DNA of 32,000 bases from Flavobacteriaceae bacterium (GTDB lineage: Bacteria > Bacteroidota > Bacteroidia > Flavobacteriales > Flavobacteriaceae), in NCBI GenBank assembly GCA_965224465.1, contig OZ245049.1, forward strand, positions 4,710,001-4,742,000, read 5' to 3'. Numbering within the stretch: the stretch's first letter is position 1; every line of letters starts with the position of its first letter. Made by a program: the position numbers and the translations under genes. Under the pieces are notes generated by a model. The model was not told the origin of the DNA, did not search any database, and saw only the letters and a program-made list of their open reading frames with translations. Below, piece after piece: positions 1,526 to 25,630 of this stretch.

Positions 1526-4500
1526 ATGAAGTATCTAGAGCATTACAAAGAAAGTGTTAGCAATCCAGAAAAATTTTGGAAGGAACAATCCGAAAATATA
1601 GCATGGTATAAAAAACCAACCAAGATTTTGTCTAAAAACGACCAAGGTTTTTACCGATGGTTTGAAGATGGAACGCTAAACATTTGTTATTTGGCTCTTG
1701 ATAAACATATCGAAGATGGTTTTGGAGATCAAATTGCATTTATTTATGATTCGCCAGTTACGCAAAAAGTTGTCAAATACACTTATACTGATGTGAAGCT
1801 TGAAGTAGCGCGTTTGGCAGGTGGATTGAGAGATTTAGGAGTGAGCAAAGGAGATACCGTAATTATTTATATGCCCATGATTCCTCAAGCCGCTTTTAGT
1901 ATGCTTGCTTGTGCTAGAATTGGCGCAATACATTCCGTAGTTTTTGGGGGATTTGCTCCTCATGAATTGGCAATCAGAATCGATGATTGTAAACCTAAAG
2001 TGTTGATTACGGCAACTTCTGGTATAGAAATAGACCGCTTAATTCCGTACAAACCAATGGTAGATGAGGCTATTGAGTTGGCAGCACACAAACCAACTAA
2101 AGTGATTGTGTATCAACGCAGTTTGGGGGCAATAGTGACCAAAACAGCGCGCTTTGTGGACTATAAGGAATTGATAGAGAAATCGGCGCCAGCAGACTGT
2201 GTAGTAATGCATGCTACAGATCCATTGTATATATTGTACACTTCGGGAACTACGGGGAAACCTAAAGGGATTTTAAGAGATACTGGAGGCTATGCGACGG
2301 CTTTAAAATATTCTATGAAAAACGTATATGGAGCTGACGAAGGAACTGTTTTTTGGGGAGCTTCTGATGTAGGTTGGGTTGTAGGGCATAGTTATATTGT
2401 GTACGGACCTTTATTAAATAGGAATACAAGCATCATTTTTGAAGGAAAACCTGTTCGTACTCCTGATGCAGGTACATTTTGGAGGGTAATTAGTGAGCAT
2501 AAAGTAGCTGTTATGTTTACAGCTCCTACCGCTATTCGTGCAATAAAAAAGGAGGATCCTGAGGGAGATTTAATTAAGAAATTTGACCTGTCTAGTTTAA
2601 AGTATCAGTTTTTAGCAGGAGAGCGTTGTGATTCTGCAACCTTAGCATGGACAGAAAAACATTTGGGGGTACCTGTGATTGATCACTGGTGGCAAACAGA
2701 ATCTGGATGGCCTATGCTATCTAACATGGTAGGGGTAGAGCTTTTACCTGTAAAACCAGGGTCTGCAGCCAAAGCAGTTGCGGGGTATGATGTTCGAATC
2801 TTGAATGATGAAGGACAGGAAGTTGGTCCAAATCAAGAAGGATTAGTAGTGGTTAAATTACCATTGCCTCCAGGGAATATGTTAGATATTTGGGGAGATA
2901 CAGATCGATTTGTAAATGGATATTTAAAAAGATTTGAAGGCTATTACCTTTCAGGTGATGGAGGATACAAGGACGATGATGGATACGTGTTTATAACAGG
3001 ACGTGTAGATGATGTGATTAATGTTGCTGGGCATCGATTGTCTACGGCAGAAATGGAAGAAATAGTTGCTTCTCATACATCTGTAGCAGAATGTGCTGTT
3101 TTTGGGATTCATGATGAATTAAAAGGGCAGGTTCCATTGGCATTGACCGTATTAAAATCGGGGGATTATATTTCTTCCTTCGAATTGGAATACAATGTTG
3201 TGCAGATGATACGGAAAGAAATTGGCCCTGTGGCATCGTTAAAACAAGTGTTAATGGTAAAACGCTTGCCTAAAACAAGGTCTGGTAAAATTTTAAGGAA
3301 ATTATTGAGAAATATTGCCGATGGTGTTGATTATACTATCCCTTCAACTATTGACGATCCCGCAGTTGTTGATGAAATAGTACATGTATTTAAATTACAT
3401 AAAATAGGGGTATTTGCAGATGCTACGATCGAAGAACAAGAAACTCTGGACGATCATCAGATAGATTCGTATATCAAATATTATAAGAAATACCAACATA
3501 GTATAAACGATCCAGAAGGGTTTTGGGGAGAAATTGCTGAAACGTTTACATGGCATAAGAAATGGGATAAAGTATTGGAGTTTAATTGGGATGAGCCAAA
3601 GTTTGAATGGTTTAAAGGGGCTAAATTAAATATTACCGAAAACTGTTTAGACCGTCATTTACTAACAAGACCAAACAAACGTGCCATTATTTGGGAACCA
3701 AATAATCCAGAGGAAGCGGTGCGTGAATTTACATATAAGCAGTTACATGCAGAAGTGTGTAAATTTGCCAATGTGTTAAAAAATAGAGGTGTTAAAAAAG
3801 GAGATAGGGTATGTATTTATATGCCTATGATTCCAGAACTAGCCATTGCCACCCTAGCATGTGCGCGTATTGGAGCTGTTCACTCGGTGGTTTTTGCTGG
3901 GTTTTCTGCAATGGCATTATCTACTAGAATTAATGATGCTGAATGTAAAGTGCTATTAACCACAGATGGGGTGAATAGAGGTGCAAAAGCCATTGATTTA
4001 AAAGGAATTGCGGATGAAGCACTTGAAACATGTCCTACAATAGAAACTTCTATTGTGTACAACCGAATCAATTCAAAGGTGATTATGAAGCCTGGACGTG
4101 ATGTTTGGTGGCACAACGAATTAGAGGGGGTTTCTGATGTATGTCCTGCAGAAATTATGGATGCCGAAGATATGCTGTTTATCCTGTATACGTCTGGATC
4201 TACAGGGAAACCTAAAGGGATGGTGCATACCTGTGCTGGATACATGGTGTACACCGCTTATAGTTTTAAAAACGTATTCCAATACGAAGAAAATGACGTG
4301 TACTTCTGTACGGCGGATATTGGTTGGATTACAGGACATTCTTATATCGTATATGGCCCATTAGGTGCTGGTGCAACTACATTGATGTTTGAAGGCGTAC
4401 CGAGTTACCCTGATTATGGTCGTTTTTGGGCGATTGTAGAAAAACACAAGGTCACTCAGTTTTATACTGCACCTACGGCTATTAGAGCTTTAGCAGCGCA

Positions 4501-5350
4501 TCCAACTGCATTAATAGACAAGCATGATATTAGTTCGATTAAAGTACTAGGAACCGTTGGAGAGCCAATTAATGAGGAGGCTTGGCACTGGTATGATGAA
4601 AAAATAGGAAAACAAAAATCACCAATTGTAGATACTTGGTGGCAGACAGAAACGGGTGGAATTATGATTTCTCCTTTGGCAAATGTGACCCCTACAAAAC
4701 CAACATTTGCAACACGTCCTTTGCCTGGGATTCAACCTGTTTTGGTAGATACTGTTGGCACTGAATTGATGCCAAATCCATCTGATGGACGCCTGTGTAT
4801 AAAATATCCTTGGCCTTCCATAGCACGAACCATTTATAACAATCATGAGCGTTATAAAGAAACGTATTTTACCGCTTTTCCAGGGATGTATTTTACCGGT
4901 GATGGTGCTTTTAGAGACTTAGAAGGGAATTACCGAATTACAGGGCGTGTAGATGATGTGATTATTGTATCTGGACATAATCTTGGAACAGCTCCGATCG
5001 AAAATGTAATTAATGAACACAGTAATATAGTAGAGTCTGCCATTGTTGGGTATCCACATGATATCAAAGGAAATGCCTTGTATGCTTATGTAATTGTATA
5101 TGACATTCCAGAAAATGAAGAATTTTTACGAAAGGAAATTAACGATTTGATTGGACGTACCGTTGGACCTATTGCAAAATTAGATAAAATTCAGTTTGTA
5201 CCAGGGTTGCCGAAAACAAGATCTGGAAAAATAATGCGACGTATTTTACGAAAAATAGCAAGCAATGATATGAGTAATTTAGGTGATATCTCTACCCTTT
5301 TAAATCCAGAAGTAGTCGAAGAGATTATCGAAGGATCATTAGTGAAATAA
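1526..5350 (+). CDS. In-frame fusion of two complete AMP-forming acyl-CoA synthetases: N-terminal PrpE-like (propionate-CoA ligase-like) plus C-terminal Acs-like (acetyl-CoA synthetase-like)
   Basis: 1274 aa. First half (about nt 1526-3410): GAIHSVVFGGFA, YTSGTTGKPKG, VIDHWWQTESGWP, GRVDDVINVAGHRLST, LPKTRSGKILRKLL, and a PSTIDDPAVVDEI tail like the PrpE C-terminus. A short acidic linker lies at about 3410-3470. Second half: SINDPEGFWGE (Acs N-terminal signature), YTSGSTGKPKG, VDTWWQTETGG, GRVDDVIIVSGHNLGT, LPKTRSGKIMRRILRKIA. Confidence 0.9.
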   Translation: MKYLEHYKESVSNPEKFWKEQSENIAWYKKPTKILSKNDQGFYRWFEDGTLNICYLALDKHIEDGFGDQIAFIYDSPVTQKVVKYTYTDVKLEVARLAGGLRDLGVSKGDTVIIYMPMIPQAAFSMLACARIGAIHSVVFGGFAPHELAIRIDDCKPKVLITATSGIEIDRLIPYKPMVDEAIELAAHKPTKVIVYQRSLGAIVTKTARFVDYKELIEKSAPADCVVMHATDPLYILYTSGTTGKPKGILRDTGGYATALKYSMKNVYGADEGTVFWGASDVGWVVGHSYIVYGPLLNRNTSIIFEGKPVRTPDAGTFWRVISEHKVAVMFTAPTAIRAIKKEDPEGDLIKKFDLSSLKYQFLAGERCDSATLAWTEKHLGVPVIDHWWQTESGWPMLSNMVGVELLPVKPGSAAKAVAGYDVRILNDEGQEVGPNQEGLVVVKLPLPPGNMLDIWGDTDRFVNGYLKRFEGYYLSGDGGYKDDDGYVFITGRVDDVINVAGHRLSTAEMEEIVASHTSVAECAVFGIHDELKGQVPLALTVLKSGDYISSFELEYNVVQMIRKEIGPVASLKQVLMVKRLPKTRSGKILRKLLRNIADGVDYTIPSTIDDPAVVDEIVHVFKLHKIGVFADATIEEQETLDDHQIDSYIKYYKKYQHSINDPEGFWGEIAETFTWHKKWDKVLEFNWDEPKFEWFKGAKLNITENCLDRHLLTRPNKRAIIWEPNNPEEAVREFTYKQLHAEVCKFANVLKNRGVKKGDRVCIYMPMIPELAIATLACARIGAVHSVVFAGFSAMALSTRINDAECKVLLTTDGVNRGAKAIDLKGIADEALETCPTIETSIVYNRINSKVIMKPGRDVWWHNELEGVSDVCPAEIMDAEDMLFILYTSGSTGKPKGMVHTCAGYMVYTAYSFKNVFQYEENDVYFCTADIGWITGHSYIVYGPLGAGATTLMFEGVPSYPDYGRFWAIVEKHKVTQFYTAPTAIRALAAHPTALIDKHDISSIKVLGTVGEPINEEAWHWYDEKIGKQKSPIVDTWWQTETGGIMISPLANVTPTKPTFATRPLPGIQPVLVDTVGTELMPNPSDGRLCIKYPWPSIARTIYNNHERYKETYFTAFPGMYFTGDGAFRDLEGNYRITGRVDDVIIVSGHNLGTAPIENVINEHSNIVESAIVGYPHDIKGNALYAYVIVYDIPENEEFLRKEINDLIGRTVGPIAKLDKIQFVPGLPKTRSGKIMRRILRKIASNDMSNLGDISTLLNPEVVEEIIEGSLVK

Positions 5351-7405: not shown

Positions 7406-8021
7406 TTGATTGTTTTAAGGGAAGGTTAGGGACTGGGGATTTTTATACGTTATTGTTGTTTGTTCAGGGGTTTAAGGATACGAATATAGGGAAAATAAAT
7501 GACTAATAACTTTTTGTTTTTTTTATTATTTATATTGATTCTTGATACTGTAGAGCATTTCTTTTGTAGTGAAAAGGTAAAATATAGATCCATTTATTGT
7601 AACTACAATAAACCTCCAATTCCTTCCCTGTACACCTCTAAAAACGAAATAAAACAATCTAGTAAACTACTAAATACACATAAATGCCTCCCGTAAAACA
7701 ACGATTCTATCTAATATTAAAACACCTCGTTTAGCATAAGAACAAGCACTCTTGTTGAGGTTCTGAAAAACAGAGGTTAATGGTTGAAAATTTTTCTGAA
7801 AGATAATTAAAAAGTTAGTATGCGAAAAGGATGTCTTTCGTATACTTGAAGAACGTTGTATACTGTATATATCGGATTTAAAAATAAACAGACAGCTATT
7901 GTAACTATTACGGAAATAACGTCAAGTTTTGGCTTGTTATTGTGGATGTAGAGGTGTTGGCAACAAGACGATCACTCAAACGGCATAACATAACAAAACG
8001 GAAAGAAAAGACTAAAAAACT

Positions 8022-8693
8022 AAGAGTTTTAAAGTAACAGTAATTATTGACGAAGAAGAACTTAATGTTCTAAGGTACAGTGTTAATTTAAGTAAAGGTG
8101 CAGGCATTAATGGAAAACCTACAACCAAAACCGTATTACACAAACTTTTATTACGATTAGAATCTAACAATAAAACAGATTTAATGAGTTGGATGATTTC
8201 TCCTAATCAAACCAAACAATTAGAACTCCATATTCAAGAACGACAAGAAGAAAAAACTAGAATCCTTTACTTTTCAGATGCTAATTTAGTAGGTTTGGAT
8301 ACTACTTTTTCTGCAACAGGAAATATGTCTATGACATATAATTTACAGATTACTGCTGCTGGACTAAAAACAAACGATTCTACTGTTGAATATTCTGCAT
8401 CTTGGAGAACTACTTTTCCTGAACAAGAAGTTGAACCAACATCAAGAAAAAATAGTGAAGAAGAAGATTTAATACCAAAAGTTTTAGACGACTACCTAAC
8501 GGACCTTAATCGAAACAGAATAGATAAAACAAAAATAGGCGAGAACGTTTTTTTGAATATTGAAACCAAAAAATTAATTGGCGAATTGCTAACTATTTCT
8601 TTGAATGATAAAAAGGCTGATTTTAAATATAAAAATAAAAGACTACCAAATGATACGATTAACCTGTCTCGAATTTTTTGGAAATATTATTAA
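8022..8693 (+). pseudogene. Decayed TssD/Hcp-like gene with C-terminal extension (start codon lost)
   Basis: The frame is open from 8016. KSFKVTVIIDEEELNVLRYSVNLSKGAGINGKPTTKTVLHKLLLRLESNNKTDLMSWMISPNQTK aligns with the N-termini of the two intact Hcp genes (MSFKAKLKVGGHEYNVLSCSYEL.., MSFLSQLTIADDTMNVLRCSFNF..). The codon at the Met position is AAG (8022-8024). The first ATG (8184) lies mid-domain. A possible +1 frameshift at a T6 run (8674-8679) extends an alternative frame to 8742. Confidence 0.7.
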
Positions 8694-9002
8694 AGATGTA
8701 GAAATTAAAAATGGATATACAGTAGATAACTCTTTTGAATAAGGGTTTGATTAATTGCATTGAAATAGTCCTAACGGTTACGAACGCGAAGAATATCGAT
8801 AATTTCGAGAGATGTTTTATCTAATACACCTTCTTTTTCACCTAAAAAAGAGTAAAATATCAGTTTTTTTCTTTGTTATTAAAAAACGATAGAGCCCTTT
8901 GTTTTATTGGCGAAATGAGCGCTATTACCAGTGGTGTACTGGGCTTAATATAGATCGAATTAATATTTTTTAATTATTAAAAGGATATATGCTTTTTTTT
9001 AT

Positions 9003-9010
9003 TACTTTTG
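9003..9010 (+). promoter_or_regulatory. Candidate Bacteroidetes-type -7 promoter box (TAnnTTTG) upstream of hcp
   Basis: tacttttg matches TAnnTTTG about 60 nt upstream of the ATG at 9071. No convincing -33 TTG was seen. Confidence 0.3.
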
Positions 9011-9070
9011 ACATGTAAATATTTTTATATATATAAATATCTTATTATTAATTACTAATATTTTTTTATT

Positions 9071-9457
9071 ATGTCTTTTAAAGCAAAATTAAAAGTAGGA
9101 GGACACGAGTACAATGTATTGTCTTGTTCTTATGAATTACATCAAGAAACTGATGCAACTGGAAGACCATCTTCTATTACTAGAGGTGGGAAAATTAGAT
9201 TAACGGTTGAGTCTACAGCAGACACAAGTTTGTCTGATTGGATGTTTAATAACTTTGAGCGTAGAGACGGTTCTATTGTTTTCTTAAAAAGAGATACCGA
9301 AGCTACTGCAAAGGAATTAAAGTTTTCTGAAGGTTATATGGTGAAATATCTAGAGAATTTTGATTCTACAGGTAAAAATCCAATGTCAGAGTCATTTATC
9401 ATTTCAGCAAAATCTGTTGCAATGGGGAATGGTGAACATGTAAATGATTGGGTGTAA
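9071..9457 (+). CDS. tssD: Type VI secretion tube protein TssD/Hcp (Bacteroidetes T6SS-iii type)
   Basis: 128 aa. The pattern MSF..L.V.G.EYNVLSCSYEL....D..GRPSS...GGKIRLTVEST.D is the signature N-terminus of Bacteroidales/Flavobacteria TssD. Confidence 0.85.
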   Translation: MSFKAKLKVGGHEYNVLSCSYELHQETDATGRPSSITRGGKIRLTVESTADTSLSDWMFNNFERRDGSIVFLKRDTEATAKELKFSEGYMVKYLENFDSTGKNPMSESFIISAKSVAMGNGEHVNDWV

Positions 9458-9498
9458 TACCGTTTTAGCTATAGTGTAACATATCTAAGAAAATAAAA

Positions 9499-9527
9499 AG
9501 GAAGTGTTACATAACACTTCCTTTTTT
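9499..9527 (+). terminator. Rho-independent terminator after first hcp
   Basis: Perfect 10-bp stem aggaagtgtt / aacacttcct (9499-9508, 9513-9522), 4-nt loop, then a T-run to 9527. Confidence 0.8.
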
Positions 9528-9568
9528 GCGTTTAATTTAATTAGTTTAACAAAAATAAATACTATAAA

Positions 9569-9964
9569 ATGTCGTTTTTATCACAATTAACAATAGCCGA
9601 TGATACCATGAATGTATTGCGATGTTCTTTTAACTTTGAACAAGGTGCAGATGCTGCTGGTAAACCATCACAAAGACCAAGTGGAGGGAAACTCATAATT
9701 TTAATAGAATCTACTAGTAAAACAGATTTTTTAGAATGGATGATCTCTCCCAATATGACCAAAAACGGAGAGGTTGTTTTTTATAAAAGAGATAATATGT
9801 CTAGTTTAAAAACCATTACTTTTAAAAATGCCTATTGTTTGAGCTATCAAGAAGATTTTGATGCAGAAGGAAACCAACCTTTAAAAACACGGATTGTTGT
9901 GTCTGCAAAAGAAATTACAGTAAAGAATACTACCTTTTCCAATAACTGGTTTGATAGAGAATAA
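9569..9964 (+). CDS. tssD: Type VI secretion tube protein TssD/Hcp, second paralog
   Basis: 131 aa. MSFLSQLTIADDTMNVLRCSFNFEQGADAAGKPSQRPSGGKLIILIESTSKTDFLEWMISP is paralogous to 9071..9457 and to the decayed copy at 8022. Confidence 0.85.
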   Translation: MSFLSQLTIADDTMNVLRCSFNFEQGADAAGKPSQRPSGGKLIILIESTSKTDFLEWMISPNMTKNGEVVFYKRDNMSSLKTITFKNAYCLSYQEDFDAEGNQPLKTRIVVSAKEITVKNTTFSNNWFDRE

Positions 9965-10049
9965 AAAAGTAGAAGCATCCCTGATGCAATCAATTAAAAT
10001 GAATTTATTATTGTAATTTTTTTTAGAGAACACTATTAATTTAGAAAAT

Positions 10050-11819
10050 ATGGCGCTACAAAGCAACACAACTATAATTATTAAGAGACAAGAATTTTCA
10101 AGTTTTCAAAGCCTTAACTTACATCAGGAAATTGATGCATCCCATTTGTTAACACTTACGTTTAGAATGGACACACTTGAAGATCTAGAAGAAGAACTTG
10201 CAACCAACAGTAAGGAGTTTTTGGGGGAAACAATTTCCTTGCAAACGATTCCTGCAAATGGTTTTGAAGACCGTTATGGCGAATTGACGTTTAAAGGTAT
10301 TATTACCGAAATAAAAATCATAAAAGGGCATGAGGTAAGTGATGGTGATAAAGTAGTTATAGTGGCAAAAAGCCCCGATTTTTTAACAAATGATGGTCCG
10401 CATTTTGCGTCTTACAACGATGTTTCCCTCTCAGAAATTATTGATAGTTCGTTTGAAGGCTATGATACTTCAAAATTAGAAGTAGACATACGCCCTCAAA
10501 ACAACCCTAGTTTGCATTATTCGGTACAGCATAACGAAAGTGCTTTTACGTATGTAAGTAGACTTGCAGCACAATACGGAGAGTGGTTCTATTACGATGG
10601 CGCGAAATTAGTATTTGGAATGCCTGGTACCGAAGACTTAGAACTCACCTATGGATTTGATTTAGTAGAGTATCAGATACGTTTGATACCTCAATCCAAC
10701 AATTACAAAATATTTGCAAATGATTATCTAACCGATGAGGTACAAGAAAAATCAACAAGCGAAACCAATGCCGGTTTAAGAGGTTTTGGAGGCTTTGTTT
10801 CTGAAAAATCAAATGCTATTTACAGAAAAGAAACAAAAATTTGGCACAATTTATACAGCAATACAGAAGTGCAACAGCGTTTAGATACAGCGGTGGAATT
10901 GCAGAAAAAAGCGATTGATGTAAAACAAGTAAAAGTACAGGGTGTTTGTGATAATCCAGGAGTAAAAATTGGGAGCGTAGTTGTAATAGAAGGCAATAGA
11001 TACAGAATTATAGAGGTTACACATAGCAATAATGAAATTGGCGATTATACAAATAAATTTGAAGGAATTACCGCAGATATAAACGCATATCCATACACCA
11101 ACATAAACGCATTTCCAAAAAGCGAAACACAGGTAGCTACCGTAAAAGAAAATGCAGATCCCGATGGATTGGGGCGCATAAGAGTGCAATTTCCATGGCA
11201 AGTGGAGTATAGCGAGTTAACCCCATGGGTGCGCATTGTAACACCACATGGAGGAGCCAATAAAGGATTCCATTTTATACCAGAAATTGACGAAGAGGTA
11301 TTGGTGGGCTTTGAAGGAGGGAATGCAGAACATCCTTATATATTGGGGAGTTTGTACACGGGAAATGCCAAACCCGAAGCGTTTAAAACCGACACCAACG
11401 ATGTTAAAATTATAAGAACCCGCAGCGGACACACCATTGAACTAAATGATAAAGATGGTGAAGAAAAAATAAATATCTACGATAACGAAGGAAGTATCAT
11501 CACTTTTGATACCCAAGCAAAATCCTTGTATATACAAGCTACGGAGAATATTGAATTCCAAGCAAAGAATATTAAATTAAAAGCGAGCGAGAATATAGAT
11601 ATGGTTGCTGGGAAAGATTTCACTACAAGTATATCAGAAAATTATAATGTTATGACTAAAAATATTACTGTAATTGCAGAACAAAATATGTCGACAGATT
11701 CTAAGAAACAAGTTAATGTAGCCGATGAAATTACAATAAGTAGTAATAAAGAAAACTTAACGCTATCGTCTGGAAAAATAATAGATATACAAAGTAAGGA
11801 AAAGGTAAAGCTATTTTAA
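10050..11819 (+). CDS. tssI: VgrG/TssI spike protein (gpD-like plus gp5 OB-fold plus short beta-helix)
   Basis: 589 aa. DPDGLGRIRVQFPWQ, TPWVRIVTPHGGANKGFHFIPEIDEEVLVGFEGGNAEHPYILGSLY (gp5/VgrG core), followed by a repetitive beta-helix-like tail. Confidence 0.9.
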   Translation: MALQSNTTIIIKRQEFSSFQSLNLHQEIDASHLLTLTFRMDTLEDLEEELATNSKEFLGETISLQTIPANGFEDRYGELTFKGIITEIKIIKGHEVSDGDKVVIVAKSPDFLTNDGPHFASYNDVSLSEIIDSSFEGYDTSKLEVDIRPQNNPSLHYSVQHNESAFTYVSRLAAQYGEWFYYDGAKLVFGMPGTEDLELTYGFDLVEYQIRLIPQSNNYKIFANDYLTDEVQEKSTSETNAGLRGFGGFVSEKSNAIYRKETKIWHNLYSNTEVQQRLDTAVELQKKAIDVKQVKVQGVCDNPGVKIGSVVVIEGNRYRIIEVTHSNNEIGDYTNKFEGITADINAYPYTNINAFPKSETQVATVKENADPDGLGRIRVQFPWQVEYSELTPWVRIVTPHGGANKGFHFIPEIDEEVLVGFEGGNAEHPYILGSLYTGNAKPEAFKTDTNDVKIIRTRSGHTIELNDKDGEEKINIYDNEGSIITFDTQAKSLYIQATENIEFQAKNIKLKASENIDMVAGKDFTTSISENYNVMTKNITVIAEQNMSTDSKKQVNVADEITISSNKENLTLSSGKIIDIQSKEKVKLF

Positions 11820-11851
11820 TTACAATATAAAACAGAGATAAATTATCTTAT

Positions 11852-12817
11852 ATGATAAAAGATATAGACAATGCTTATAGCCTTGGTGTTTTTGAAAATT
11901 ATAACCTTAGGCATAATTTGGAAGGTTTTTATGGTAATTATGGGTGCTCAGTTCTTTATGATGATGGCGCATCTAAAAATGAAATTAGACATAAATTAAA
12001 AATTAAATTTATAGGTAATGTATCTGAATTTGAAAATTGGTATAGAATAGAAAGAGATTCTAAGATTTATATTAATGATATTCTTTTAGATAGTTTTATG
12101 GATACGTTGGCTTTTGAAGTAGGTCAGGTACTATATCCTTTAGAGATTAATACAACATATAATGGTGTTTTGTCTAAAATTCTAAATTATACCGAAATAG
12201 TAAATAGATGGGAAAAAGAAAAAGTACTTATACATAAAAAATATAAAGGAAAAATAGTTGATGACTATGTTGCATTAGCTGATAAAACATTAAAATCAGA
12301 AGATATTTTGTTTAAAAAAATAACTTCTGATTGGTTTTTAAATTTATATTTTTCTGATTTATATAAATTCTATTCACCAGATTTATATGTTGATGATAAA
12401 ATGTACTATCCTTTATTAGGAGATACAAACCATGTAAGGTATGAAACGGTTAGTAAAATAGAAATTGAAAAAGAAGTAGGACGAACGGATGTAAGAGTTA
12501 ATATAAAAGGAACTATAAACGATGAGCGTTGTGCTCTTGATTTGGAACAAAAGCTTGACGAGCCTTATTATGGTTTGCTAAATAAAGAAGAGAAAGTACT
12601 TAAAGGAACGTGTGATATAACGTATTTATTAGATGAAAAAACGGGTGTTATTGAGGGGGTAGAAGCTGTTTTTTACACAAAATTTAAAAACCCTAAAAAA
12701 GTTTTAGTAAAAATGTTTTTAGTAGAACAACTTAAAGGAAATGAAATAGAAGAAGAGGGAAATCCAAATTTAAAAAAAGGGTTTTGGTCAAAGTTATTTA
12801 AAGGATTTAAAATATGA
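11852..12817 (+). CDS. Hypothetical protein between vgrG and PAAR-like gene (adaptor/chaperone candidate)
   Basis: 321-aa ORF with no signal peptide and no recognised motif. Its stop overlaps the next ATG (ATGA at 12814-12817). Confidence 0.6.
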   Translation: MIKDIDNAYSLGVFENYNLRHNLEGFYGNYGCSVLYDDGASKNEIRHKLKIKFIGNVSEFENWYRIERDSKIYINDILLDSFMDTLAFEVGQVLYPLEINTTYNGVLSKILNYTEIVNRWEKEKVLIHKKYKGKIVDDYVALADKTLKSEDILFKKITSDWFLNLYFSDLYKFYSPDLYVDDKMYYPLLGDTNHVRYETVSKIEIEKEVGRTDVRVNIKGTINDERCALDLEQKLDEPYYGLLNKEEKVLKGTCDITYLLDEKTGVIEGVEAVFYTKFKNPKKVLVKMFLVEQLKGNEIEEEGNPNLKKGFWSKLFKGFKI

Positions 12818-13305
12818 GTCAAAAATATATTCTTATACAGGGAGCTATGTGTAAATGTGAGTTTGGAGATTTCCCTGATAAATTAAAAGTACTTTCACAT
12901 AAAAAATATTTTGCAAATGATCCTGATGGTTCAGAAAAGTTAATAGCTACTACTATGGAAATAGGAAGTAGTACTTTTGAAAAAAACACATTTGGACAAT
13001 GTAAACTACAACCAACGGGTAGTAGTTTTAAACCCTGTCAAATTTTAGTTACGAAATGGAATGATCCTTATGAAAATTTACAACTAGGTAGTGGAGGGAA
13101 AGTTATTTTAGAAGACAGTAAGGCTATATGTCCTATATCTGGCAGCCCATGCATAAGTGTAATAGCCCATGGTCAAACTGTAGAAGGGAGTTCTAGTAGT
13201 AGTAAGGAAGCTAATTCAGATGTTCAACAACAATTAAATCCAATGGTTAATTTAGAAGAGATGAATGCCGAAAATTCTGAAATAAAAGAAATAATAATCA
13301 GTTAG
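12814..13305 (+). CDS. DUF4280-type PAAR-like protein
   Basis: 163 aa. GAMCKCEFGDFPDKLKV...FGQCKLQP...FKPCQILVTKW...AICPISGSPCISVIAHGQ matches the conserved Cys spacing and terminal GQ of DUF4280. Ser-rich acidic tail. Confidence 0.8.
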   Translation: MSQKYILIQGAMCKCEFGDFPDKLKVLSHKKYFANDPDGSEKLIATTMEIGSSTFEKNTFGQCKLQPTGSSFKPCQILVTKWNDPYENLQLGSGGKVILEDSKAICPISGSPCISVIAHGQTVEGSSSSSKEANSDVQQQLNPMVNLEEMNAENSEIKEIIIS

Positions 13306-13306
13306 T

Positions 13307-16000
13307 ATGGCAGTAGGGATAAAAAAAACAGTAGTAGTATACAATGGAATAGAAATGTCACAGAAGGTATTTCGTATAATTGCGAATAAAAAAATAAAAA
13401 TAAGAGCAATATATCACCCAAATACTCCAGAGAATCAAAAAGGGCATGCAAAATGGATTGTAGCACCTAAAAAGGATGGTCCTTTTACTAAGGGACACCA
13501 AAGTGGAAATATTGGAGACTCTAGAAGTATATCTCTAGAAGCAAAATATTGCGGACCAAAAAAGTATGTAATTGAAGCTTTTATGACAAAACCGGAAAAT
13601 AAATACCCAGCTCAATTAGTGTTTTTAGGGGTCGCTCCAGAAAAAATTATTAACACAAGATGGAGTCTTACAAATGGAGGTAAAGATATAGGAGGGTCAA
13701 CTGTTAAATATGGTCAAGAAGTTTGGTTAAATGTACAGACAGAGGGATTAAATGGTGCAGTTTTAGAGATAGATGTGTATAATAAGCAATCGGGAGATGA
13801 CAAAAAGGTATGTACAATTCCTTATGTACAATGTATGTCTGGGGAAGTTAACCATATAATTAATACCTCTTTGTGGAGAGCAACAACTGGTTGGTTTGTT
13901 ACTAATGATGAAAAGTTTTATATTAAAATAAGAAAAAGAGGAAGTTCAAGTGTTATAAAGGCGAATAAAAAAGACAACTACTTACTGATTGAAGATAAGC
14001 TTGTTAGAAGGGTGGTGGTCGAGCAAAAAAGTGCCAAGCCTGTTAAAGTAGGAAAGAGTGAAGTAAATGTAGAACGATATGACCTCTGCCGTTTTACAAA
14101 AATAGCAATTACGGAAAAAGGAAAAAATTCAATATCACTTTTTGAAGAAGGTAGAATACTTTCTGATAAACAAAAGAGAACAGAATTTCAAGCTTCTCAA
14201 ACAATTTATTTTGATTTTGATAAATGGAATGTTAAAAATGAGACCAAAAAAGTGCTAAATGGTTTAATAGACTTGTTGTTAGATAATCCATATGTGCCGT
14301 CAGAATTAGGGGCGCATTGCGATAGTAGAGGTGATGACTATTATAATGACAATTTGTCAAAGAAGCGTGCTATAGCTGTTGTCGATTATTTAGTGACAAA
14401 AGGAATATCTAGAAATAATATTAGATGGAAAGGCTATGGAAAAAGAAGACCTGTTATCCCTGGAGATCCAAATGAATTGTCAGAAGCTGAACATAAAGAG
14501 AACAGACGTGTAACCATAAAGTTTCTAATATCTGGAGGCGATGCTGAAAGTATTGTTTATGAAACTATTGCGGGAGGTGAAACAAAACCATTAGATATAA
14601 AAATAGACATTACAGATTATGTAACAGAACAGTGTCTTAGAAAAAATGATACTGCAAGAAAACATGAAGCCAATAACTTAAAAATAATAGAATTAACTTC
14701 AGACGGAAAAAATGGACCATACACTAAAGATGGTTCCAAACCAGTAAACTACAAAGTGTATTCTAGCCTTTCAAAATCTAGATTTATTCCTTTTGATTAT
14801 ATTTTACCACATAAAAGTAAAACAAATTTATTTAAGTTTTACATTAATAGTTGTAGGTATTATGCGAATAAAACAAAAGCTGCTATACTTATTAAAGTAT
14901 ATCCAGATATTAAATGGGATTTTCATTTTTACGCAAAACTAAGTAACCCTTTAGCTGTAAAATGGCAAGGATTGAGTAAAGCCAATGACACTAAAATGAG
15001 AAAAGTCAACGGGAAGATTGCAGCTCAAGAAAGATGGAAACAAACAGAAGCTGCATTTGGAGCTGTGTTAAAAGCTAGTTGGAATAAAATAGATGAATTA
15101 AACTATGATGAAACCAAAGAAATTACTGCTAAATATGAGGATAAATTTAAAACATTATATAATTTATTCTCTTCTCTAAAAAATATTTCCAAGGGAATAA
15201 CAGCTCAGACTAAAGGTAAAGCAACAAAAGTATTAGGAAGCAAACAACCTTTTGAAGTAGAGATAATCCCTCCAAATATATGCTTTGGAGCAGAATGGAT
15301 GCTCGCAAGAGGTAGTCTAAAACAAAAGGCTATAAAGGAAATAGGTACTGAGATAAAAGTTTATTTAAAGGCAGAACCACTAATCGGGCTAAAGCTTATA
15401 ATTGACCTTTTAGATATTGCTTTAAAAGGTGCATCAATGATGGCAACTGGTAATACAGTTGCAGCAGATATATTTATTCGTGTTAAAAAATGGGCTTCAA
15501 AAGGCTATGAATCCGAAAACGTTGAAATATCGTTTGACATGTGGATAGATTTAATTCTAAAAGGTACTATTAGTGGAGGTGTTGATTTTACATTAATTAC
15601 CGCCTCAGACAAGAAAGCTGTTAATGCGAACATAGATGCTAAAATAAGTGCAGAACTTAGTGCAGGTCTTAAACTGAAGGCAAAAGTGCTTATACTAAAA
15701 GCGAGTGCATGGGTAGAAGGAGAAGCTAGTGTCTCGGCTAAAATGGGAATAACCTCAGGACACACGTTTAAATATGAAACTTACAAAGGTTTATTTTATA
15801 CGCCAACATTAAAGTTAGATGCATGTATTGCCCAAGTAGTATTAATGGTAGAAGTCGGTTTGTCGTACAAAGTAATAAGTGCTGATTGGCAACCAATAAA
15901 TTATAATAAAAAAAGAGAATTCTGGGAAGAATTTGATATTATTAAAAAATTAGAACAAATATCTGGGATAAGCCCTGTAATTCAAATAATAAAACCATAA
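13307..16000 (+). CDS. Large T6SS cargo effector candidate with internal OmpA-like peptidoglycan-binding domain
   Basis: 897 aa, starting 1 nt after the PAAR-like stop. OmpA_C-like block at about nt 14200-14530: FDFDKWNV...LGAHCDSRGDDYYNDNLSKKRAIAVVDYLVTKGI...GYGKRRPV...NRRVTIKF. The C-terminal ~260 aa are rich in amphipathic/hydrophobic Ala-Gly-Leu-Lys segments (EPLIGLKLIIDLLDIALKGASMMATGNTVAADIFI; ELSAGLKLKAKVLILKASAWVEGEASVSAKMG). Confidence 0.75.
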   Translation: MAVGIKKTVVVYNGIEMSQKVFRIIANKKIKIRAIYHPNTPENQKGHAKWIVAPKKDGPFTKGHQSGNIGDSRSISLEAKYCGPKKYVIEAFMTKPENKYPAQLVFLGVAPEKIINTRWSLTNGGKDIGGSTVKYGQEVWLNVQTEGLNGAVLEIDVYNKQSGDDKKVCTIPYVQCMSGEVNHIINTSLWRATTGWFVTNDEKFYIKIRKRGSSSVIKANKKDNYLLIEDKLVRRVVVEQKSAKPVKVGKSEVNVERYDLCRFTKIAITEKGKNSISLFEEGRILSDKQKRTEFQASQTIYFDFDKWNVKNETKKVLNGLIDLLLDNPYVPSELGAHCDSRGDDYYNDNLSKKRAIAVVDYLVTKGISRNNIRWKGYGKRRPVIPGDPNELSEAEHKENRRVTIKFLISGGDAESIVYETIAGGETKPLDIKIDITDYVTEQCLRKNDTARKHEANNLKIIELTSDGKNGPYTKDGSKPVNYKVYSSLSKSRFIPFDYILPHKSKTNLFKFYINSCRYYANKTKAAILIKVYPDIKWDFHFYAKLSNPLAVKWQGLSKANDTKMRKVNGKIAAQERWKQTEAAFGAVLKASWNKIDELNYDETKEITAKYEDKFKTLYNLFSSLKNISKGITAQTKGKATKVLGSKQPFEVEIIPPNICFGAEWMLARGSLKQKAIKEIGTEIKVYLKAEPLIGLKLIIDLLDIALKGASMMATGNTVAADIFIRVKKWASKGYESENVEISFDMWIDLILKGTISGGVDFTLITASDKKAVNANIDAKISAELSAGLKLKAKVLILKASAWVEGEASVSAKMGITSGHTFKYETYKGLFYTPTLKLDACIAQVVLMVEVGLSYKVISADWQPINYNKKREFWEEFDIIKKLEQISGISPVIQIIKP

Positions 16001-16005
16001 ATATA

Positions 16006-16716
16006 ATGAAAAAAATAGCATTAATTACTGTAATAATCTTACTCATGACTTCATGCAGCTCACAAAAAACGATTGATTTAGCGGAAATAGAAATACCATA
16101 TCCAAGTAATAAATTACTAAATGAAACGGTTACCTATAAGAGGAGTCCCGCAGGTCTTTTTATTCACCTAGAATCGTATAGAACATACGATTCTAATCTT
16201 TTAAATTTTAATGATACGGACTTATCTGGTAGGCTAACCACTTCTAAAAATAAATTTCTAAATGATAATTTTTTAGTATTTCATGTTGACCCCATAAAAA
16301 AAACAATCCCTTTTTTTGAAATAGAAATACTTACAACTAAACAGAGCCAGAATCTTTTCAAAGCACTTTTAAAAAAACTAGGAGAGCCTGTATACTATAG
16401 AAAAGACGATGAGATTTTTTATGGAGTATGGGAGAAAGACACTATAACATATTTGTTTGCACATAATTACCAAAGTAGTATTAATGGGATTGATACAGAA
16501 CTAAGTGACTTACGTATAATTGACAATACTGATAAGCAATTAATAGATAGGTTTTATAGTGCAGGTTTTCAGTATTTTGGAGACTATGTATATGAAAGGG
16601 CAAAAAGAAATGACCCTAATTACACTTATTTACAATTTGCTAAATACCAAGCTAAAGAAAGATGGGATGAAAATTATTTAAAGGAAATTAAGAGCAACAA
16701 ACCATTAGAAGATTAA
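16006..16716 (+). CDS. Lipoprotein, immunity candidate for the 897-aa effector
   Basis: 236 aa. MKKIALITVIILLMTSCSSQ lipobox. Starts 5 nt after the effector stop. Confidence 0.65.
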   Translation: MKKIALITVIILLMTSCSSQKTIDLAEIEIPYPSNKLLNETVTYKRSPAGLFIHLESYRTYDSNLLNFNDTDLSGRLTTSKNKFLNDNFLVFHVDPIKKTIPFFEIEILTTKQSQNLFKALLKKLGEPVYYRKDDEIFYGVWEKDTITYLFAHNYQSSINGIDTELSDLRIIDNTDKQLIDRFYSAGFQYFGDYVYERAKRNDPNYTYLQFAKYQAKERWDENYLKEIKSNKPLED

Positions 16717-16727
16717 AAGTATTTACT

Positions 16728-17504
16728 ATGACGAAACCATATTATATGATAAAATTTAGTGGATTTGCATGTATGTTTGAAATACGTGTGAATGATATTC
16801 CTGTAATAACATTAAATTTAGACGGTCAAGCAGCGACTAATATCCCTATAAATTATGCTATTTTTAAAAGCGGTTTACAAGAAATAACGGTAAAGGTGCT
16901 TCCAAACTCTGGTAATAGCATATTTAATGAAGGAGCTGAATTTAAATATGATATTCTACTTTATGATGTATCAAATGGTTTTGAATTTAAAGAAGAATTT
17001 TCAGGCTATAAAACACCTAAAGTTAATAAAAACAAAATGATACCTGCATTTATAAATAAAATACCTTTTCAAGCTACTGTTCCTTTTTCTTTAAAAACCT
17101 TATGGTTAAATGGGGAGGATATTAGTGAAATAAATGATTTACAAGCGAAATTAAGAAGAGCTTATTATAAAATAGGAAACCTTATAATAACTAAAAATTA
17201 TGATGCTTTTAAAAAAGAAATAGCTAATAGAGAATTTAATATGGCTAACTCAATGTATTTAGAGCCTGTGGATTCTAGAGCACGTTTAAATGGACTCATT
17301 AAAGATTTTGAAAGCGGTTTCGATGAGATGGTATTAAACAAAGAAGCATTAGTAGTGATTTCAGCAAATAATAAGAAAGTGTCCCTTAAAACTTTTTATG
17401 GAGAACCTGCTTTAAAATTTTTAAACCGCAAAACAAAAGAAGAAATACAATTAGATATAGAATTCTATTTTAATAAAGAAACCAATACATTTGAAATCAT
17501 TTAA
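16728..17504 (+). CDS. Hypothetical cytoplasmic protein, last gene of the vgrG operon
   Basis: 258-aa ORF, 11 nt after the previous stop. No signal peptide and no recognised motif. Confidence 0.55.
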   Translation: MTKPYYMIKFSGFACMFEIRVNDIPVITLNLDGQAATNIPINYAIFKSGLQEITVKVLPNSGNSIFNEGAEFKYDILLYDVSNGFEFKEEFSGYKTPKVNKNKMIPAFINKIPFQATVPFSLKTLWLNGEDISEINDLQAKLRRAYYKIGNLIITKNYDAFKKEIANREFNMANSMYLEPVDSRARLNGLIKDFESGFDEMVLNKEALVVISANNKKVSLKTFYGEPALKFLNRKTKEEIQLDIEFYFNKETNTFEII

Positions 17505-17818
17505 AAGATCAGTACAAAAAGAATAGGTGTAGATAAGCTGAATTCAGTCGTACTTATAATACAGCTTCATATACTGCTGGTTCTGGTGAAAAGATACGTT
17601 TGATGCAAAAGAAACTATTGGTTTGAAGATAGAAGCAGGTATAATCATCAAAGCTAAAACGGTCGTTATTATTGTAGAGTTTTATGCAGAAGCTTACTTT
17701 TATTTGCCATCGATTCCGATGCTAGACCTACCAACTATGTGATCGCATTGATTTCAAATTCGTGCGATTGCGTCTTTAGTGACTATATGTTTTTAAATAA
17801 TTACAACAAAGCTCTTGC

Positions 17819-18220
17819 GTGAAATTATGTTGTTTATCGGCTACTTGTATTTGTATTGCTGTTTTTTTCTTGAGGATGGGTTTTGGAAAGGAAGCAGAAG
17901 AGGTAACTACTTTTTTATGCCAAAGTAATATTACCATAAGTACTCTCAAAAGCCAAGTGCCAAAAGCACATTGGTCTATTGATTTAGAGTATCTTTATGA
18001 TGTTAATAAATATTCTCAGATTATTATTATGTGTCGTTTAAATATAAATAACAATCAATTTTTTCCAATTCCCAAAAAAACAATTCCACGTTATATTGCG
18101 GTAACAATACCTGTGATTCGAAATGATTCGCAGTCAGGGTTTGTTTATAGAGATGGTCTCAATGATCGTGTTTATGTAGGGACACAACAAGAATTACTAA
18201 ACAAAAAAATATGGAAATAG
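17819..18220 (+). CDS. Hypothetical protein (weak call; alternative ATG at 17876)
   Basis: 133-aa ORF with a GTG start. Overlaps the next ORF by 10 nt. No motif recognised. Confidence 0.35.
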   Translation: MKLCCLSATCICIAVFFLRMGFGKEAEEVTTFLCQSNITISTLKSQVPKAHWSIDLEYLYDVNKYSQIIIMCRLNINNNQFFPIPKKTIPRYIAVTIPVIRNDSQSGFVYRDGLNDRVYVGTQQELLNKKIWK

Positions 18221-19047
18221 ATTTAGAATACCAACATGCACAAAAATTTAAGAGTAAATACTTGCGGCCTTTGCCTTTTGTAATTCGTACAGATTCACTT
18301 CAAATTGATATTAAAACCAAACAGAATAAAAAATTATACCCTGTTTTTAATAACAATTGTATCAAAGAATATTTAGCATCGAATAAGGCGCCTGCAAAAA
18401 TGGATATTTATATGCATATAGGGATTTGTTCTTTTTTTTGGATACTATTACCTGTTTTATCTTGTATAAGAAACGGAGAATTATTGAGTTTTAGTATTTA
18501 TTTGATCTTCTTTTTTTTAGGCTTGCCTTTTCCTTTTATGGCTTACAGGTCTTTTAAACAGTATAACATAGCTCCTGAGCAAACTTATGTTACTTTTGAT
18601 CGGCTTAATAGCTTATTAATAATGCCTACATCAGATGAACAAAGTTATTTTACCATACCTTTTTCTCATTTAATCGCGGGAGAGGTTGTAACAGGAACCA
18701 AACATACTTATGGAGGTAAGTCTTTAGCTTTTATAAATGATACCAAACCTGTAATGTTCCGACCATGGAGACCAAAGGATCATATAAGTTTGCACCATGC
18801 AGCGACTACCCCAAAAGAGATATGGTCATATTACGTTTGGTATATGGATAAAAACCGTCCCTTACCTGAGTGTGAAGCTTTTGATAAGTTTAGAGAAAAA
18901 GATTTTGAGCGTCGTAAATCAGCAGGGTTTCCGCCTCCGTTATTTAAGAGTAGGGTTCCAACCCTAGAGGCAAGCCTGGAGCAACAATTACTACGTGAAA
19001 CTTTTTGGAAAGACCAAAAGAGAAATAGAGTGCTGTTTTTAAGTTGA
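18211..19047 (+). CDS. Hypothetical membrane protein
   Basis: 278 aa. Two adjacent hydrophobic helices (IYMHIGICSFFWILLPVLSCI; FSIYLIFFFLGLPFPFMAY). No family recognised. Confidence 0.55.
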   Translation: MEIDLEYQHAQKFKSKYLRPLPFVIRTDSLQIDIKTKQNKKLYPVFNNNCIKEYLASNKAPAKMDIYMHIGICSFFWILLPVLSCIRNGELLSFSIYLIFFFLGLPFPFMAYRSFKQYNIAPEQTYVTFDRLNSLLIMPTSDEQSYFTIPFSHLIAGEVVTGTKHTYGGKSLAFINDTKPVMFRPWRPKDHISLHHAATTPKEIWSYYVWYMDKNRPLPECEAFDKFREKDFERRKSAGFPPPLFKSRVPTLEASLEQQLLRETFWKDQKRNRVLFLS

Positions 19048-22852: not shown

Positions 22853-22958
22853 CACCAGAAACTAAAGTAGAAGAAAAAGAAGTGCCACCAGAACGTATGT
22901 TTCCAAGTACAGATATAGTACATCACTTTCATCCAATTGCTTGGGTGGAGCAGATGAG
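22853..22958 (+). repeat. Cassette junction repeat, copy 2
   Basis: 22853-22942 matches copy 1 (86/90). 22879-22958 matches copy 3 at 27550-27629 (76/80). Confidence 0.9.
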
Positions 22959-25219: not shown

Positions 25220-25220
25220 T

Positions 25221-25562: not shown

Positions 25563-25630
25563 TGTCTTTTTACAGGTAAAAAACCTAATAAAACCAGGCT
25601 GTTCATGTATATTTTTCGTATATTTAATGT

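Follow-up and report, generated by a model that had tools for sequence, protein, structure and literature searches.

The DNA analysed here is a window of 32,000 nucleotides from a Flavobacteriaceae bacterium (GenBank assembly GCA_965224465.1, contig OZ245049.1, positions 4,710,001 to 4,742,000 of the forward strand), and coordinates given without a locus label count from its first letter. The locus in question is a set of nine plus-strand genes at 8016-17504, which the initial annotation had read as an auxiliary cargo island of a type VI secretion system of subtype iii (T6SS-iii), comprising three hcp genes, vgrG, and genes for an unknown protein, a PAAR-like protein, an effector, a lipoprotein and a second unknown protein. 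All nine genes are in place, and the tight packing described for the operon at 10050-17504 is borne out by spacings of 32, -4 (an overlap), 1, 5 and 11 nt. The start of the island at 8016 also stands; its end at 17504 does not, as effector and immunity cassettes run on to the end of the window. The reading of the genes after vgrG as adaptor, PAAR-like tip, effector and immunity-type genes agrees with the sequence matches, and we consider it quite probable that 8016-17504 is a genuine T6SS-iii spike-and-cargo module. For comparison, a VgrG search of genome contigs yielded 73 related loci, taken with 10-kb flanks, to which gene-index look-ups added 7; single loci are referred to by L numbers.

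Three hcp genes precede the operon, two intact and one decayed, as had been described. The intact genes encode Hcp/TssD tube proteins of 128 aa (9071-9457, plus strand; PF17642, E 3.2e-52) and 131 aa (9569-9964, plus strand; PF17642, E 2.8e-47), both matched over their full length and 35% identical to each other. The 128-aa protein is 92% identical to a Tenacibaculum geojense copy that adjoins a core cluster (L005), and most of the hcp-bearing loci likewise have the 128/131-aa pair 5′ of vgrG, with matches to each query in 34 related loci. The decayed copy occupies an open frame on the plus strand at 8016-8693, in which a region aligned by tblastn with residues 2-127 of the 131-aa Hcp (8025-8405, E 6e-19) is followed by a C-terminal extension domain of ~90 aa. 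The frame is open from 8016; the ATG expected at 8022-8024 reads AAG, giving KSFK and not MSFK, the last ~15 residues are unlike those of intact relatives, and the Pfam TssD profile matches the open reading frame (ORF) beginning at ATG-8184 only at profile positions 55-127. Because of the AAG start codon and the aberrant C-terminal end, this third Hcp is probably a pseudogene. Its extension (8406-8693, about 80-90 aa), which the initial annotation overlooked, carries the motif '..DYY(L/I)TD....G..v.LN..T..L.GE.L...L.D...D(Y/F)KY' and is also present on an intact 239-aa Hcp of Spongiivirga citrea (L030, 16523-17242) and on a DUF4280 PAAR-like protein of another flavobacterial metagenome-assembled genome (MAG; L022, 7066-7740). 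An extension found on tube as well as tip proteins may serve as a docking module for cargo.

The operon opens with vgrG (10050-11819, plus strand), which encodes a spike protein of 589 aa with matches to Phage_base_V (E 1e-23), Phage_GPD (E 1.5e-10) and TIGR01646 (E 3e-34). Its best match among the 73 loci, at 67% identity, is from T. geojense. Protein clustering at 90% identity groups it with two other VgrG proteins, encoded outside the window on a contig of the same length (5,241,564 bp). The three paralogues (P0078, P0079 and P0080) share at least 99% identity over residues 1-445, after which the last ~140 residues differ sharply. Such an arrangement suggests that gene conversion acts on the spike body and leaves the cargo-specific tails separate; a shared body with differing tails is the usual pattern of alternative cargo-specific spikes.

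The 321-aa protein encoded next (11852-12817, plus strand), previously listed as unknown, has no Pfam or NCBIfam family (in Pfam even at E ≤ 10) and proves to be an adaptor of the Ate3/BtapC family. By phmmer it matches Protein Data Bank (PDB) chain 9jg8_A, 'Bacteroides T6SS Adapter Protein C' (BtapC), with E 5.9e-8, and a profile built from 13 orthologues matches the same chain with E 3.3e-20, covering BtapC residues 27-152. The fold of Ate3/BtapC adaptors is an 11-strand open β-barrel with a hydrophobic cavity. The adaptor gene begins 32 nt 3′ of vgrG, overlaps the following DUF4280 gene by 4 nt, and occupies the same position in 12 of 12 related loci. The DUF4280 gene (12814-13305, plus strand) encodes a stand-alone PAAR-like tip protein of 163 aa (PF14107, E 1.3e-15; 58.3 bits against a Pfam cut-off of 26.3) that matches residues 3-136 of 9jg8_B/9jg9 (BtpeA, a 'DUF3289 family protein') with E 3.6e-14. 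It has cysteines at positions 13, 15, 63, 75, 106 and 113, counted in its own sequence; tips of this kind (IglG, Fjoh_3275, Pte3) have conserved cysteines, of which IglG has four. In Aquimarina and Capnocytophaga loci we observed DUF4280 fused to a C-terminal extension (650-740 aa) in genes next to that of a BtapC-type adaptor (L028, 12812-14761; L029, 12069-14015; L078, 4047-6260), an arrangement of the BtpeA type; with these fused proteins, both stand-alone and fused versions of the PAAR-like protein occur in Flavobacteriia.

The gene at 13307-16000 (plus strand) encodes the 897-aa effector, whose sole recognised domain family is OmpA-like (residues 296-406, E 3.5e-15) and which has no signal peptide. 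An AlphaFold2 (AF2) model built on 29 homologues (mean predicted local distance difference test score (pLDDT) 70.7 and predicted TM-score (pTM) 0.45 for the whole protein, with parts below pLDDT 50) has an all-β N-terminal region, an OmpA domain, a β-rich middle and very long β-hairpins at 649-873. We treat the protein in three parts: a predicted all-β loading domain (residues 1-292; 13307-14182), a Pal/OmpA-like peptidoglycan-binding domain (residues 296-406; 14192-14524) and a β-rich putative toxin module with long hairpins (residues 411-897; 14537-16000). Residues 1-230 are modelled with pLDDT 80-90. In a Foldseek search of the PDB with the effector model, the first match was 9jg8_C (E 1.6e-9, TM-target 0.61, 242 columns) and the second 9jdh, 'BtaeB-NTD' (E 2.5e-9), followed by Pal, OmpA, PorE and TagL domains. 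The fold match to BtaeB-NTD would sit in residues 1-290, given the aligned length, the N-terminal domain that forms the target, and the profile positions (114-174) of the sequence match. Against 177,635 PDB sequences, a profile limited to the N-domain likewise placed 9jdh_A and 9jg8_C on top, weakly (E 0.006 and 0.01), and in Pfam at E ≤ 10 the N-domain found no match.

These matches converge on one solved assembly. Li et al. (2025, Cell Host Microbe 33:1901) reportedly described in B. fragilis GA3 a BtpeA-BtaeB-BtapC cargo complex on VgrG (PDB 9jg8, 9jg9, 9jdh and 9jdd). The PDB title of 9jg8 reads 'cargo complex (BtpeA-BtaeB-BtapC) bound to the VgrG spike', and in this entry the tip of VgrG carries the BtaeB N-domain along with BtapC and a PAAR-like domain. 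As in the GA3 complex, the adaptor here is homologous to BtapC, the DUF4280 protein to the BtpeA N-domain, and the predicted effector N-domain has the BtaeB-NTD fold, all encoded directly 3′ of vgrG. Going by these matches, adaptor, PAAR-like tip and effector N-domain together are a new member of the already described and solved BtapC/Ate3 system. The claim that the whole set downstream of vgrG is new thus falls for the adaptor, the PAAR-like protein and the loading domain, which belong to the known Ate3/BtapC-Pte3-BtaeB system. The window differs from GA3 in that its PAAR-like protein stands alone, whereas BtpeA is a PAAR-like domain fused to a DUF3289 toxin; in that it has one adaptor-dependent effector and not two; in its OmpA-like domain; and in its host, a marine flavobacterium rather than a gut Bacteroides. 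Moreover, the 897-aa protein has a C-terminus of another kind: we found no match in it to the peptidase-C39-like toxin domain of BtaeB, which occurs in a 781-aa protein encoded further downstream.

The central domain of the effector scores 56.6 bits against PF00691 (cut-off 27.2). Its best PDB match is 6top, the PorE C-domain (E 3e-22), Pal is matched too, and so is the NCBIfam model of the OmpA domain of long-form TssL. Residues 296-406 have the fold and motif of the Pal/OmpA domains of TagL, long-form TssL and PorE of the type IX secretion system (T9SS), and the peptidoglycan-contact residues of the NxxLSxxRA region are conserved, N347, L350, S351 and R354 being invariant in 29 sequences and D339 being present in 24 of the 29. 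Unlike its counterparts in Pal, TagL and PorE, the domain lies in the middle of a predicted secreted cargo protein that has neither signal peptide nor membrane anchor, and not in envelope machinery of the producer. We also considered whether the 897-aa protein is an ordinary envelope OmpA protein, and rejected this, as it has no signal peptide, carries a BtaeB-type loading domain and is always encoded after vgrG, adaptor and DUF4280 genes.

A profile of the C-terminal part (residues 411-897) matched 541 clusters at E ≤ 1e-3 and 314 at E ≤ 1e-10 in a search space of 1.84 billion representative proteins. The supposition that the toxin domain is a novelty thus fails: its family is spread over Bacteroidota and numbers at least 541 clusters. 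Most of its members are about 770 aa long, and many, with lengths of 745-790 aa, lack any Pfam domain. Named examples are from Capnocytophaga canis, Flavobacterium and Porphyromonas macacae. Relatives of ~770 aa match the full-length family profile at 1-295 and ~420-909 and skip the stretch between; because these shorter proteins match both flanks and skip the domain, the Pal/OmpA-like domain is, on this comparison, a clean insertion of ~125 aa between two conserved modules. The OmpA-containing form comprises ~31 full-length proteins, and its named carriers (Marixanthomonas, Lacinutrix, Cellulophaga, Maribacter and Aquimarina) are all marine Flavobacteriaceae. The insertion suggests that the toxin would act beside the peptidoglycan layer. 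In the AF2 model the toxin module has strands of 25-27 residues between 649 and 873, with pLDDT 40-88. Neither the full-length effector nor its profile matched PDB sequences other than OmpA-like chains, and in Pfam at E ≤ 10 the C-domain gave only a sub-threshold, chance-level match (E 0.19).

Two genes close the operon. The first (16006-16716, plus strand) encodes a 236-aa lipoprotein and putative periplasmic immunity protein, whose N-terminus, MKKIALITVIILLMTSC, is a signal peptide with a lipobox cysteine and gives a weak LPAM_1 match; with a mean pairwise identity of 0.30 it is the fastest-evolving gene product of the module. The second (16728-17504, plus strand) encodes a 258-aa protein without a signal peptide and without a Pfam or NCBIfam family (Pfam was empty at E ≤ 10). 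Neither protein matches a PDB sequence. The 258-aa protein is modelled by AF2 with pLDDT 93 as a β-sandwich, four helices and a C-terminal β-sheet, and this model found no match among PDB folds (best E 0.1). Its profile does match proteins encoded directly 3′ of the OmpA-less effector, namely a 325-aa protein of P. macacae (E 2e-21) and a 317-aa protein of Flavobacterium (E 5e-18), as well as a second P. macacae copy of 324 aa (E 1.6e-27). These homologues have an N-terminal signal sequence with a lipobox cysteine and a linker, and the matched domain starts at about residue 52-56; in the Porphyromonas and Flavobacterium lineages examined, the 258-aa family is thus, to judge by signal sequence and gene position, a lipoprotein in the immunity position. 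In the window and in Capnocytophaga the 258-aa type is without a signal peptide, and here a start further upstream is impossible because the ORF begins 11 nt past the preceding stop codon. The window encodes, in addition, the lipoprotein, which is unrelated to this family. We prefer to read the 258-aa protein as a putative cytoplasmic holder or antitoxin and the lipoprotein as the putative periplasmic immunity protein. As a separate observation, genes for a GIDE-like membrane protein (~355 aa; 180 aa in L078) and LemA (186 aa) adjoin the effector partner genes in several relatives (L003, 14004-16008; L004, 14402-16382; L037, 18186-19771; L078, 10500-11927, an OmpA-less Capnocytophaga locus), together with a ~120-aa protein in L003, L004 and L078; this set is absent from the window.

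The nearest precedent for the operon as a whole is the bte3 operon of B. fragilis, which consists of vgrG and genes for the adaptor Ate3, the DUF4280 protein Pte3, the effector Bte3 and the lipoprotein Bti3 (PMC13402684, Nat Commun 2026). The same paper identifies BtapC as an Ate3 orthologue, notes orthologues in free-living Flavobacterium, and is our precedent for an operon of this kind, for toxicity in the periplasm and for immunity by a lipoprotein (PMC13402684). Bte3 is described as having N-terminal β-sandwiches and a C-terminal β-rich 'open barrel' of ~360 aa, with modelled domains that reach residue 768 (PMC13402684). The window shares with the bte3 operon the order of VgrG, adaptor, stand-alone DUF4280 protein, large effector without a signal peptide and immunity-type gene, the last of these being here also a lipoprotein gene of putative immunity function. 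The OmpA-less relatives of 745-790 aa are similar in size and layout to Bte3, which is known to us by its published description only. Our effector model, at pTM 0.45, has an all-β N-terminal region and long C-terminal hairpins, to be set beside that description. Unlike Bte3, the window effector has the ~125-aa peptidoglycan-binding insertion, and unlike the bte3 operon, with its one lipoprotein, the window has two partner genes, one for a distinct lipoprotein (236 aa) and one for a 258-aa protein that lacks a signal peptide.

The toxin end of the effector and its partners also travel apart from the rest of the module. In L001 and L002 the full module is followed by effector C-terminal fragments (~480-897), each succeeded by homologues of the lipoprotein and the 258-aa protein; one of these cassettes repeats the main copy at 100% identity, and another retains 31-38% identity. 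In L001, a Marixanthomonas MAG, the segment 12336-13424, which codes for the final 129 effector residues and the complete lipoprotein, recurs at 100% identity ~5 kb downstream, at 17185-18274, with the diverged cassette lying between the copies; this indicates recent duplication and recombination in the orphan array. Further effector C-terminal fragments lie downstream in L063, orphan pairs of lipoprotein and 258-aa-type genes occur in Flavobacterium (L080), and orphan copies of the lipoprotein are present in both L001 and L080.

Co-variation within the module was assessed from pairwise-identity matrices of eight related loci by exact Mantel tests, the outcome of which is supportive and not decisive. 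The adaptor tracked the effector N-domain (r 0.80, p 0.004) but showed no significant relation to residues 649-897 (r 0.13), and the DUF4280 protein behaved alike (r 0.81, p 0.0015 against the N-domain; r 0.26, not significant, against 649-897). The lipoprotein showed the reverse, with r 0.83 (p 0.0002) against residues 649-897 and r 0.24 (not significant) against the N-domain, and the 258-aa protein gave r 0.84 (p 0.0008) and r 0.50 (p 0.03), respectively. Residues 649-897 fall into discrete types: those of L015, L016 and L037 are 90-93% alike, and that of L063 is ~42% identical to them, yet its N-domain is 59-64% identical. Because adaptor and DUF4280 protein track the N-domain while lipoprotein and 258-aa protein track the C-terminus, these data support independent recombination of a loading module and a toxin-plus-immunity module, whose signature is what we see.

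The C-terminus is read as the toxin, and the two downstream genes as its partners, because of the orphan cassettes and the Mantel co-variation. By homology, the two Hcp paralogues supply tube subunits and VgrG the spike. We propose that adaptor and PAAR-like tip would load the 897-aa effector, by way of its N-domain, onto the divergent C-terminal tail of VgrG; the joint divergence of adaptor and effector N-domain is indirect evidence for such a bridge. Once fired, the effector would act in the envelope of the target cell, where the inserted Pal/OmpA-like domain may tether it to peptidoglycan and the C-terminal long-hairpin domain of 490 aa, probably of the 'open β-barrel' type described for B. 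fragilis Bte3, may damage the membrane or an envelope component. The lipoprotein would neutralise incoming toxin in the periplasm, and the 258-aa protein would probably bind the same toxin domain in the producer cytoplasm, as antitoxin or holder. The firing apparatus would be encoded elsewhere in the 5.24-Mb genome, and the module would be one of at least three alternative VgrG spikes. As a tentative and rather doubtful scenario for its history, a widespread envelope toxin would have gained the Pal/OmpA domain in this subfamily of marine Flavobacteriaceae, where the 258-aa family would have lost its export signal and been paired with an unrelated lipoprotein, giving protection in two compartments. 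If this is true, a cytoplasmic holder or antitoxin and a periplasmic immunity protein would both be specific to the same toxin domain; we know of no description of such a division of labour for T6SS-iii effectors.

The 897-aa protein could instead be mainly a structural or obligatory component of the spike, its OmpA domain helping the spike to engage or cross the wall and the downstream genes encoding assembly partners. We think this unlikely, although it has a basis in B. fragilis, where Bte3 is needed for T6SS-based competition, deletion of bfe5 (BtpeA) and/or bfe7 (BtaeB) abolishes T6SS function, and these proteins have been proposed as essential spike components (PMC13402684). It would also fit the 7 of 12 relatives whose main cluster has this module as its vgrG set, and the role of OmpA-like domains as anchors of T6SS-i machinery, for example in TagL, which is itself among the fold matches. 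However, the orphan C-terminal fragments travel with immunity-type genes, and the discrete C-terminal types co-vary with a fast-evolving lipoprotein, which is the signature of polymorphic toxins and their immunity proteins; furthermore, the OmpA-less form is the commoner one, so that peptidoglycan binding appears dispensable for the basic role of the family. The structural and the toxin readings are not mutually exclusive.

The surroundings of the module bear on whether it is auxiliary, and on whether it is still in use. As the initial annotation had reported, the 32 kb hold no T6SS core gene: Pfam and NCBIfam scans of candidate ORFs of at least 80 aa (the long plus-strand series and two long minus-strand ORFs) gave no match to TssB/C/E/F/G/K, ClpV or TssN-R, and tblastn searches of the window with seven core markers from related loci (TssB, TssC, TssE, TssF, TssN, TssO and ClpV) were likewise empty. 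A homologue of the effector is present in 12 related loci, and the order is always vgrG, adaptor, DUF4280, effector, (lipoprotein), 258-aa protein. In seven of these (L003, L004, L006, L014, L015, L016 and L020) the module lies among T6SS-iii core genes, with subsets of TssB/C, ClpV, TssE/F and TssN/O within 10 kb; the others (L001/L002, L032, L037 and L063) are, like the window, without a core gene within that distance. The label 'auxiliary' therefore holds insofar as no core machinery lies within 32 kb, and fails as a property of the gene set, since the same gene order is found inside a core T6SS-iii cluster in 7 of 12 related loci. Because of these seven loci the module is, on present gene orders, not intrinsically auxiliary.

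Orphan hcp-vgrG-effector clusters are known in Proteobacteria, as in the aux clusters of Vibrio cholerae and the vgrG islands of Pseudomonas. As in these, hcp, vgrG, adaptor, effector and immunity genes stand here away from core machinery, several VgrG paralogues carry cargo-specific tails, and orphan immunity and toxin cassettes follow downstream. The differences are that the window belongs to T6SS-iii and has TssD-type Hcp proteins, that its tip is a DUF4280 protein and not PAAR, that its adaptor is of the BtapC type and not DUF4123, DUF1795 or DUF2169, and that in many relatives the module is part of the main cluster.

We regard it as quite improbable that the island is a stranded and non-functional remnant, namely the right-hand part (hcp-hcp-vgrG-cargo) of a former core cluster whose apparatus was separated or lost. 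Relatives L014-L016 do have the same genes directly after tssN in a core cluster, whereas the genes upstream of them in the window are unrelated; one hcp is a pseudogene, insertion sequence (IS) elements of the IS66 and IS30 types and a split CHAP gene lie downstream, and the core locus of the source genome is assumed. Against this, the remaining eight genes are intact, those of the vgrG operon lie -4 to 32 nt apart, and the three VgrG paralogues, at least 99% identical over 445 residues with differing tails, point to ongoing use and gene conversion. Moreover, an uncultured Marixanthomonas has the same orphan arrangement, with 10-kb flanks free of core genes; for this taxon a TssC is named on another contig, among the best 120 of 6149 matches, with membership of the same genome not established. 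An origin of the Hcp- and VgrG-like genes from an extracellular contractile injection system (eCIS) or a prophage tail is scarcely credible: VgrG does have Phage_GPD and Phage_base_V in common with phage baseplate hubs, but the Hcps match the Bacteroidota T6SS-specific TssD family (E 1e-47 to 1e-52), the 32 kb contain no sheath, tube, baseplate (wedge included), tape-measure or capsid genes, adaptor and PAAR-like protein match a solved T6SS cargo complex, and such an origin is ruled out because orthologous modules lie among TssB/C, ClpV and TssN/O genes of T6SS-iii core clusters, so that the T6SS-iii assignment of the initial annotation is upheld.

Several points weigh against the interpretation of the locus as a working spike with an envelope toxin. 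A core T6SS-iii locus in the source genome is an assumption with indirect support from the three VgrG paralogues, none of the 120 listed out of 6149 TssC matches being from the source contig, and some decay of the island is visible in the hcp pseudogene and in the IS66 and IS30 elements 7-11 kb downstream. Bte3 and Bti3 are linked to the locus by their architecture and operon as described in print, and not by sequences. The toxic mechanism is a guess, because the C-domain model is only moderately confident, with several segments below pLDDT 50, and has no solved relative. A cytoplasmic 258-aa protein is a misfit in a simple model of periplasmic immunity, and the 258-aa type is also found repeatedly in orphan arrays, in which a chaperone of the producer's own effector would lack a client.

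Beyond 17504, the cassettes continue with an immunity-gene-like ORF for a 278-aa protein (18211-19047, plus strand), recognised from tblastn arrays in relatives. Other Flavobacteriaceae (L009, L010, L038 and L041) have 2-7 complete or partial relatives of it encoded in tandem 3′ of vgrG, an arrangement typical of immunity genes. Next comes a second T6SS effector gene (19609-21954, plus strand), encoding a 781-aa protein without a Pfam family that has an N-terminal delivery-type domain, a lytic transglycosylase domain (residues 381-532 match 9udh_A, a lytic transglycosidase, E 4.6e-20) and a peptidase-C39-like domain (residues 601-781 match 9jdd_A, the BtaeB C-domain, E 1.2e-30). The two domains of BtaeB are thus split in the window, the N-domain fold being on the 897-aa protein and the C-domain on the 781-aa protein. 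Homologues of the 781-aa N-domain, followed by CHAP toxins, lie ~2 kb 3′ of vgrG in L005, L018, L057 and L072.

An orphan C-terminal toxin cassette follows at 22882-24180 (plus strand), with CHAP (E 1.5e-9) and Glyco_hydro_19 (E 8e-4) matches, the latter marking a domain like glycoside hydrolase family 19 (GH19). Over its residues 1-35 this ORF shares 67% identity with the 781-aa protein (residues 342-377), and in L057 the same toxin comes after an N-domain like that of the 781-aa protein, with overlapping tblastn matches that are consistent with one fused gene. The N-domain of the 781-aa protein is divided from its toxin part by a junction motif, 'FPSTNIVHHFHPIAF' (consensus about 'R/KMFPSTNIVHHFHPIAFxxQM'), which is found at 20632-20715, 22882-22986, 27553-27696 and about 31900-31975; it opens the CHAP/GH19-like ORF, the stranded fragment at 27553-27696 and the toxin part of a partial ORF at the end of the window. 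The motif looks like a recombination point for swaps of C-terminal toxins, and the CHAP/GH19-like ORF and the fragments look like orphan toxin cassettes. Among these cassettes lie an IS66 element (tnpA, tnpB and tnpC; 24911-27316, plus strand) and an IS30-like transposase gene (27727-28731, minus strand), and the latter seems to have interrupted an effector gene of the CHAP/TIGR02594 type, leaving a 47-aa N-terminal fragment (27553-27696), which abuts the IS30-like element, and the rest (28801-30102).

Elsewhere in the window, a palindrome with a 14-bp stem and A5/T5 flanks lies between the two intact hcp genes (9495-9526) and resembles a bidirectional terminator. It is weak evidence of one, because terminator-like sites in this region are no commoner than in shuffled sequences; the same was found for sigma-70 promoter-like sites, in a scan that leaves out Bacteroidota promoters. 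Sequence scans found no tRNA, tmRNA or Rfam family. Upstream of the island, two complete acetyl-CoA synthetase units follow each other in a plus-strand ORF of 1274 aa (1526-5350), which gives two matches each to ACAS_N, AMP-binding and AMP-binding_C; the ORF is either an unusual fusion or two neighbouring genes read through as one.

The locus is not a new kind of system. What is new here is the insertion of an OmpA domain into the effector and the presence, side by side, of a lipoprotein and a 258-aa protein that has no signal peptide. How T6SS-iii loads its cargo became clear only in 2025-2026, from work confined to gut Bacteroides, and by its sequence matches the locus would extend the arrangement of adaptor, PAAR-like tip and effector N-domain to free-living marine Flavobacteriaceae. 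It also illustrates the modularity of such cargo, in which the loading domain and the toxin-plus-immunity block recombine independently. The effector family is currently annotated only as 'OmpA family protein', and its conserved 258-aa partner is without a solved relative; the family of 541 clusters and this partner are concrete candidates for the mechanism of Bte3-like envelope toxins.

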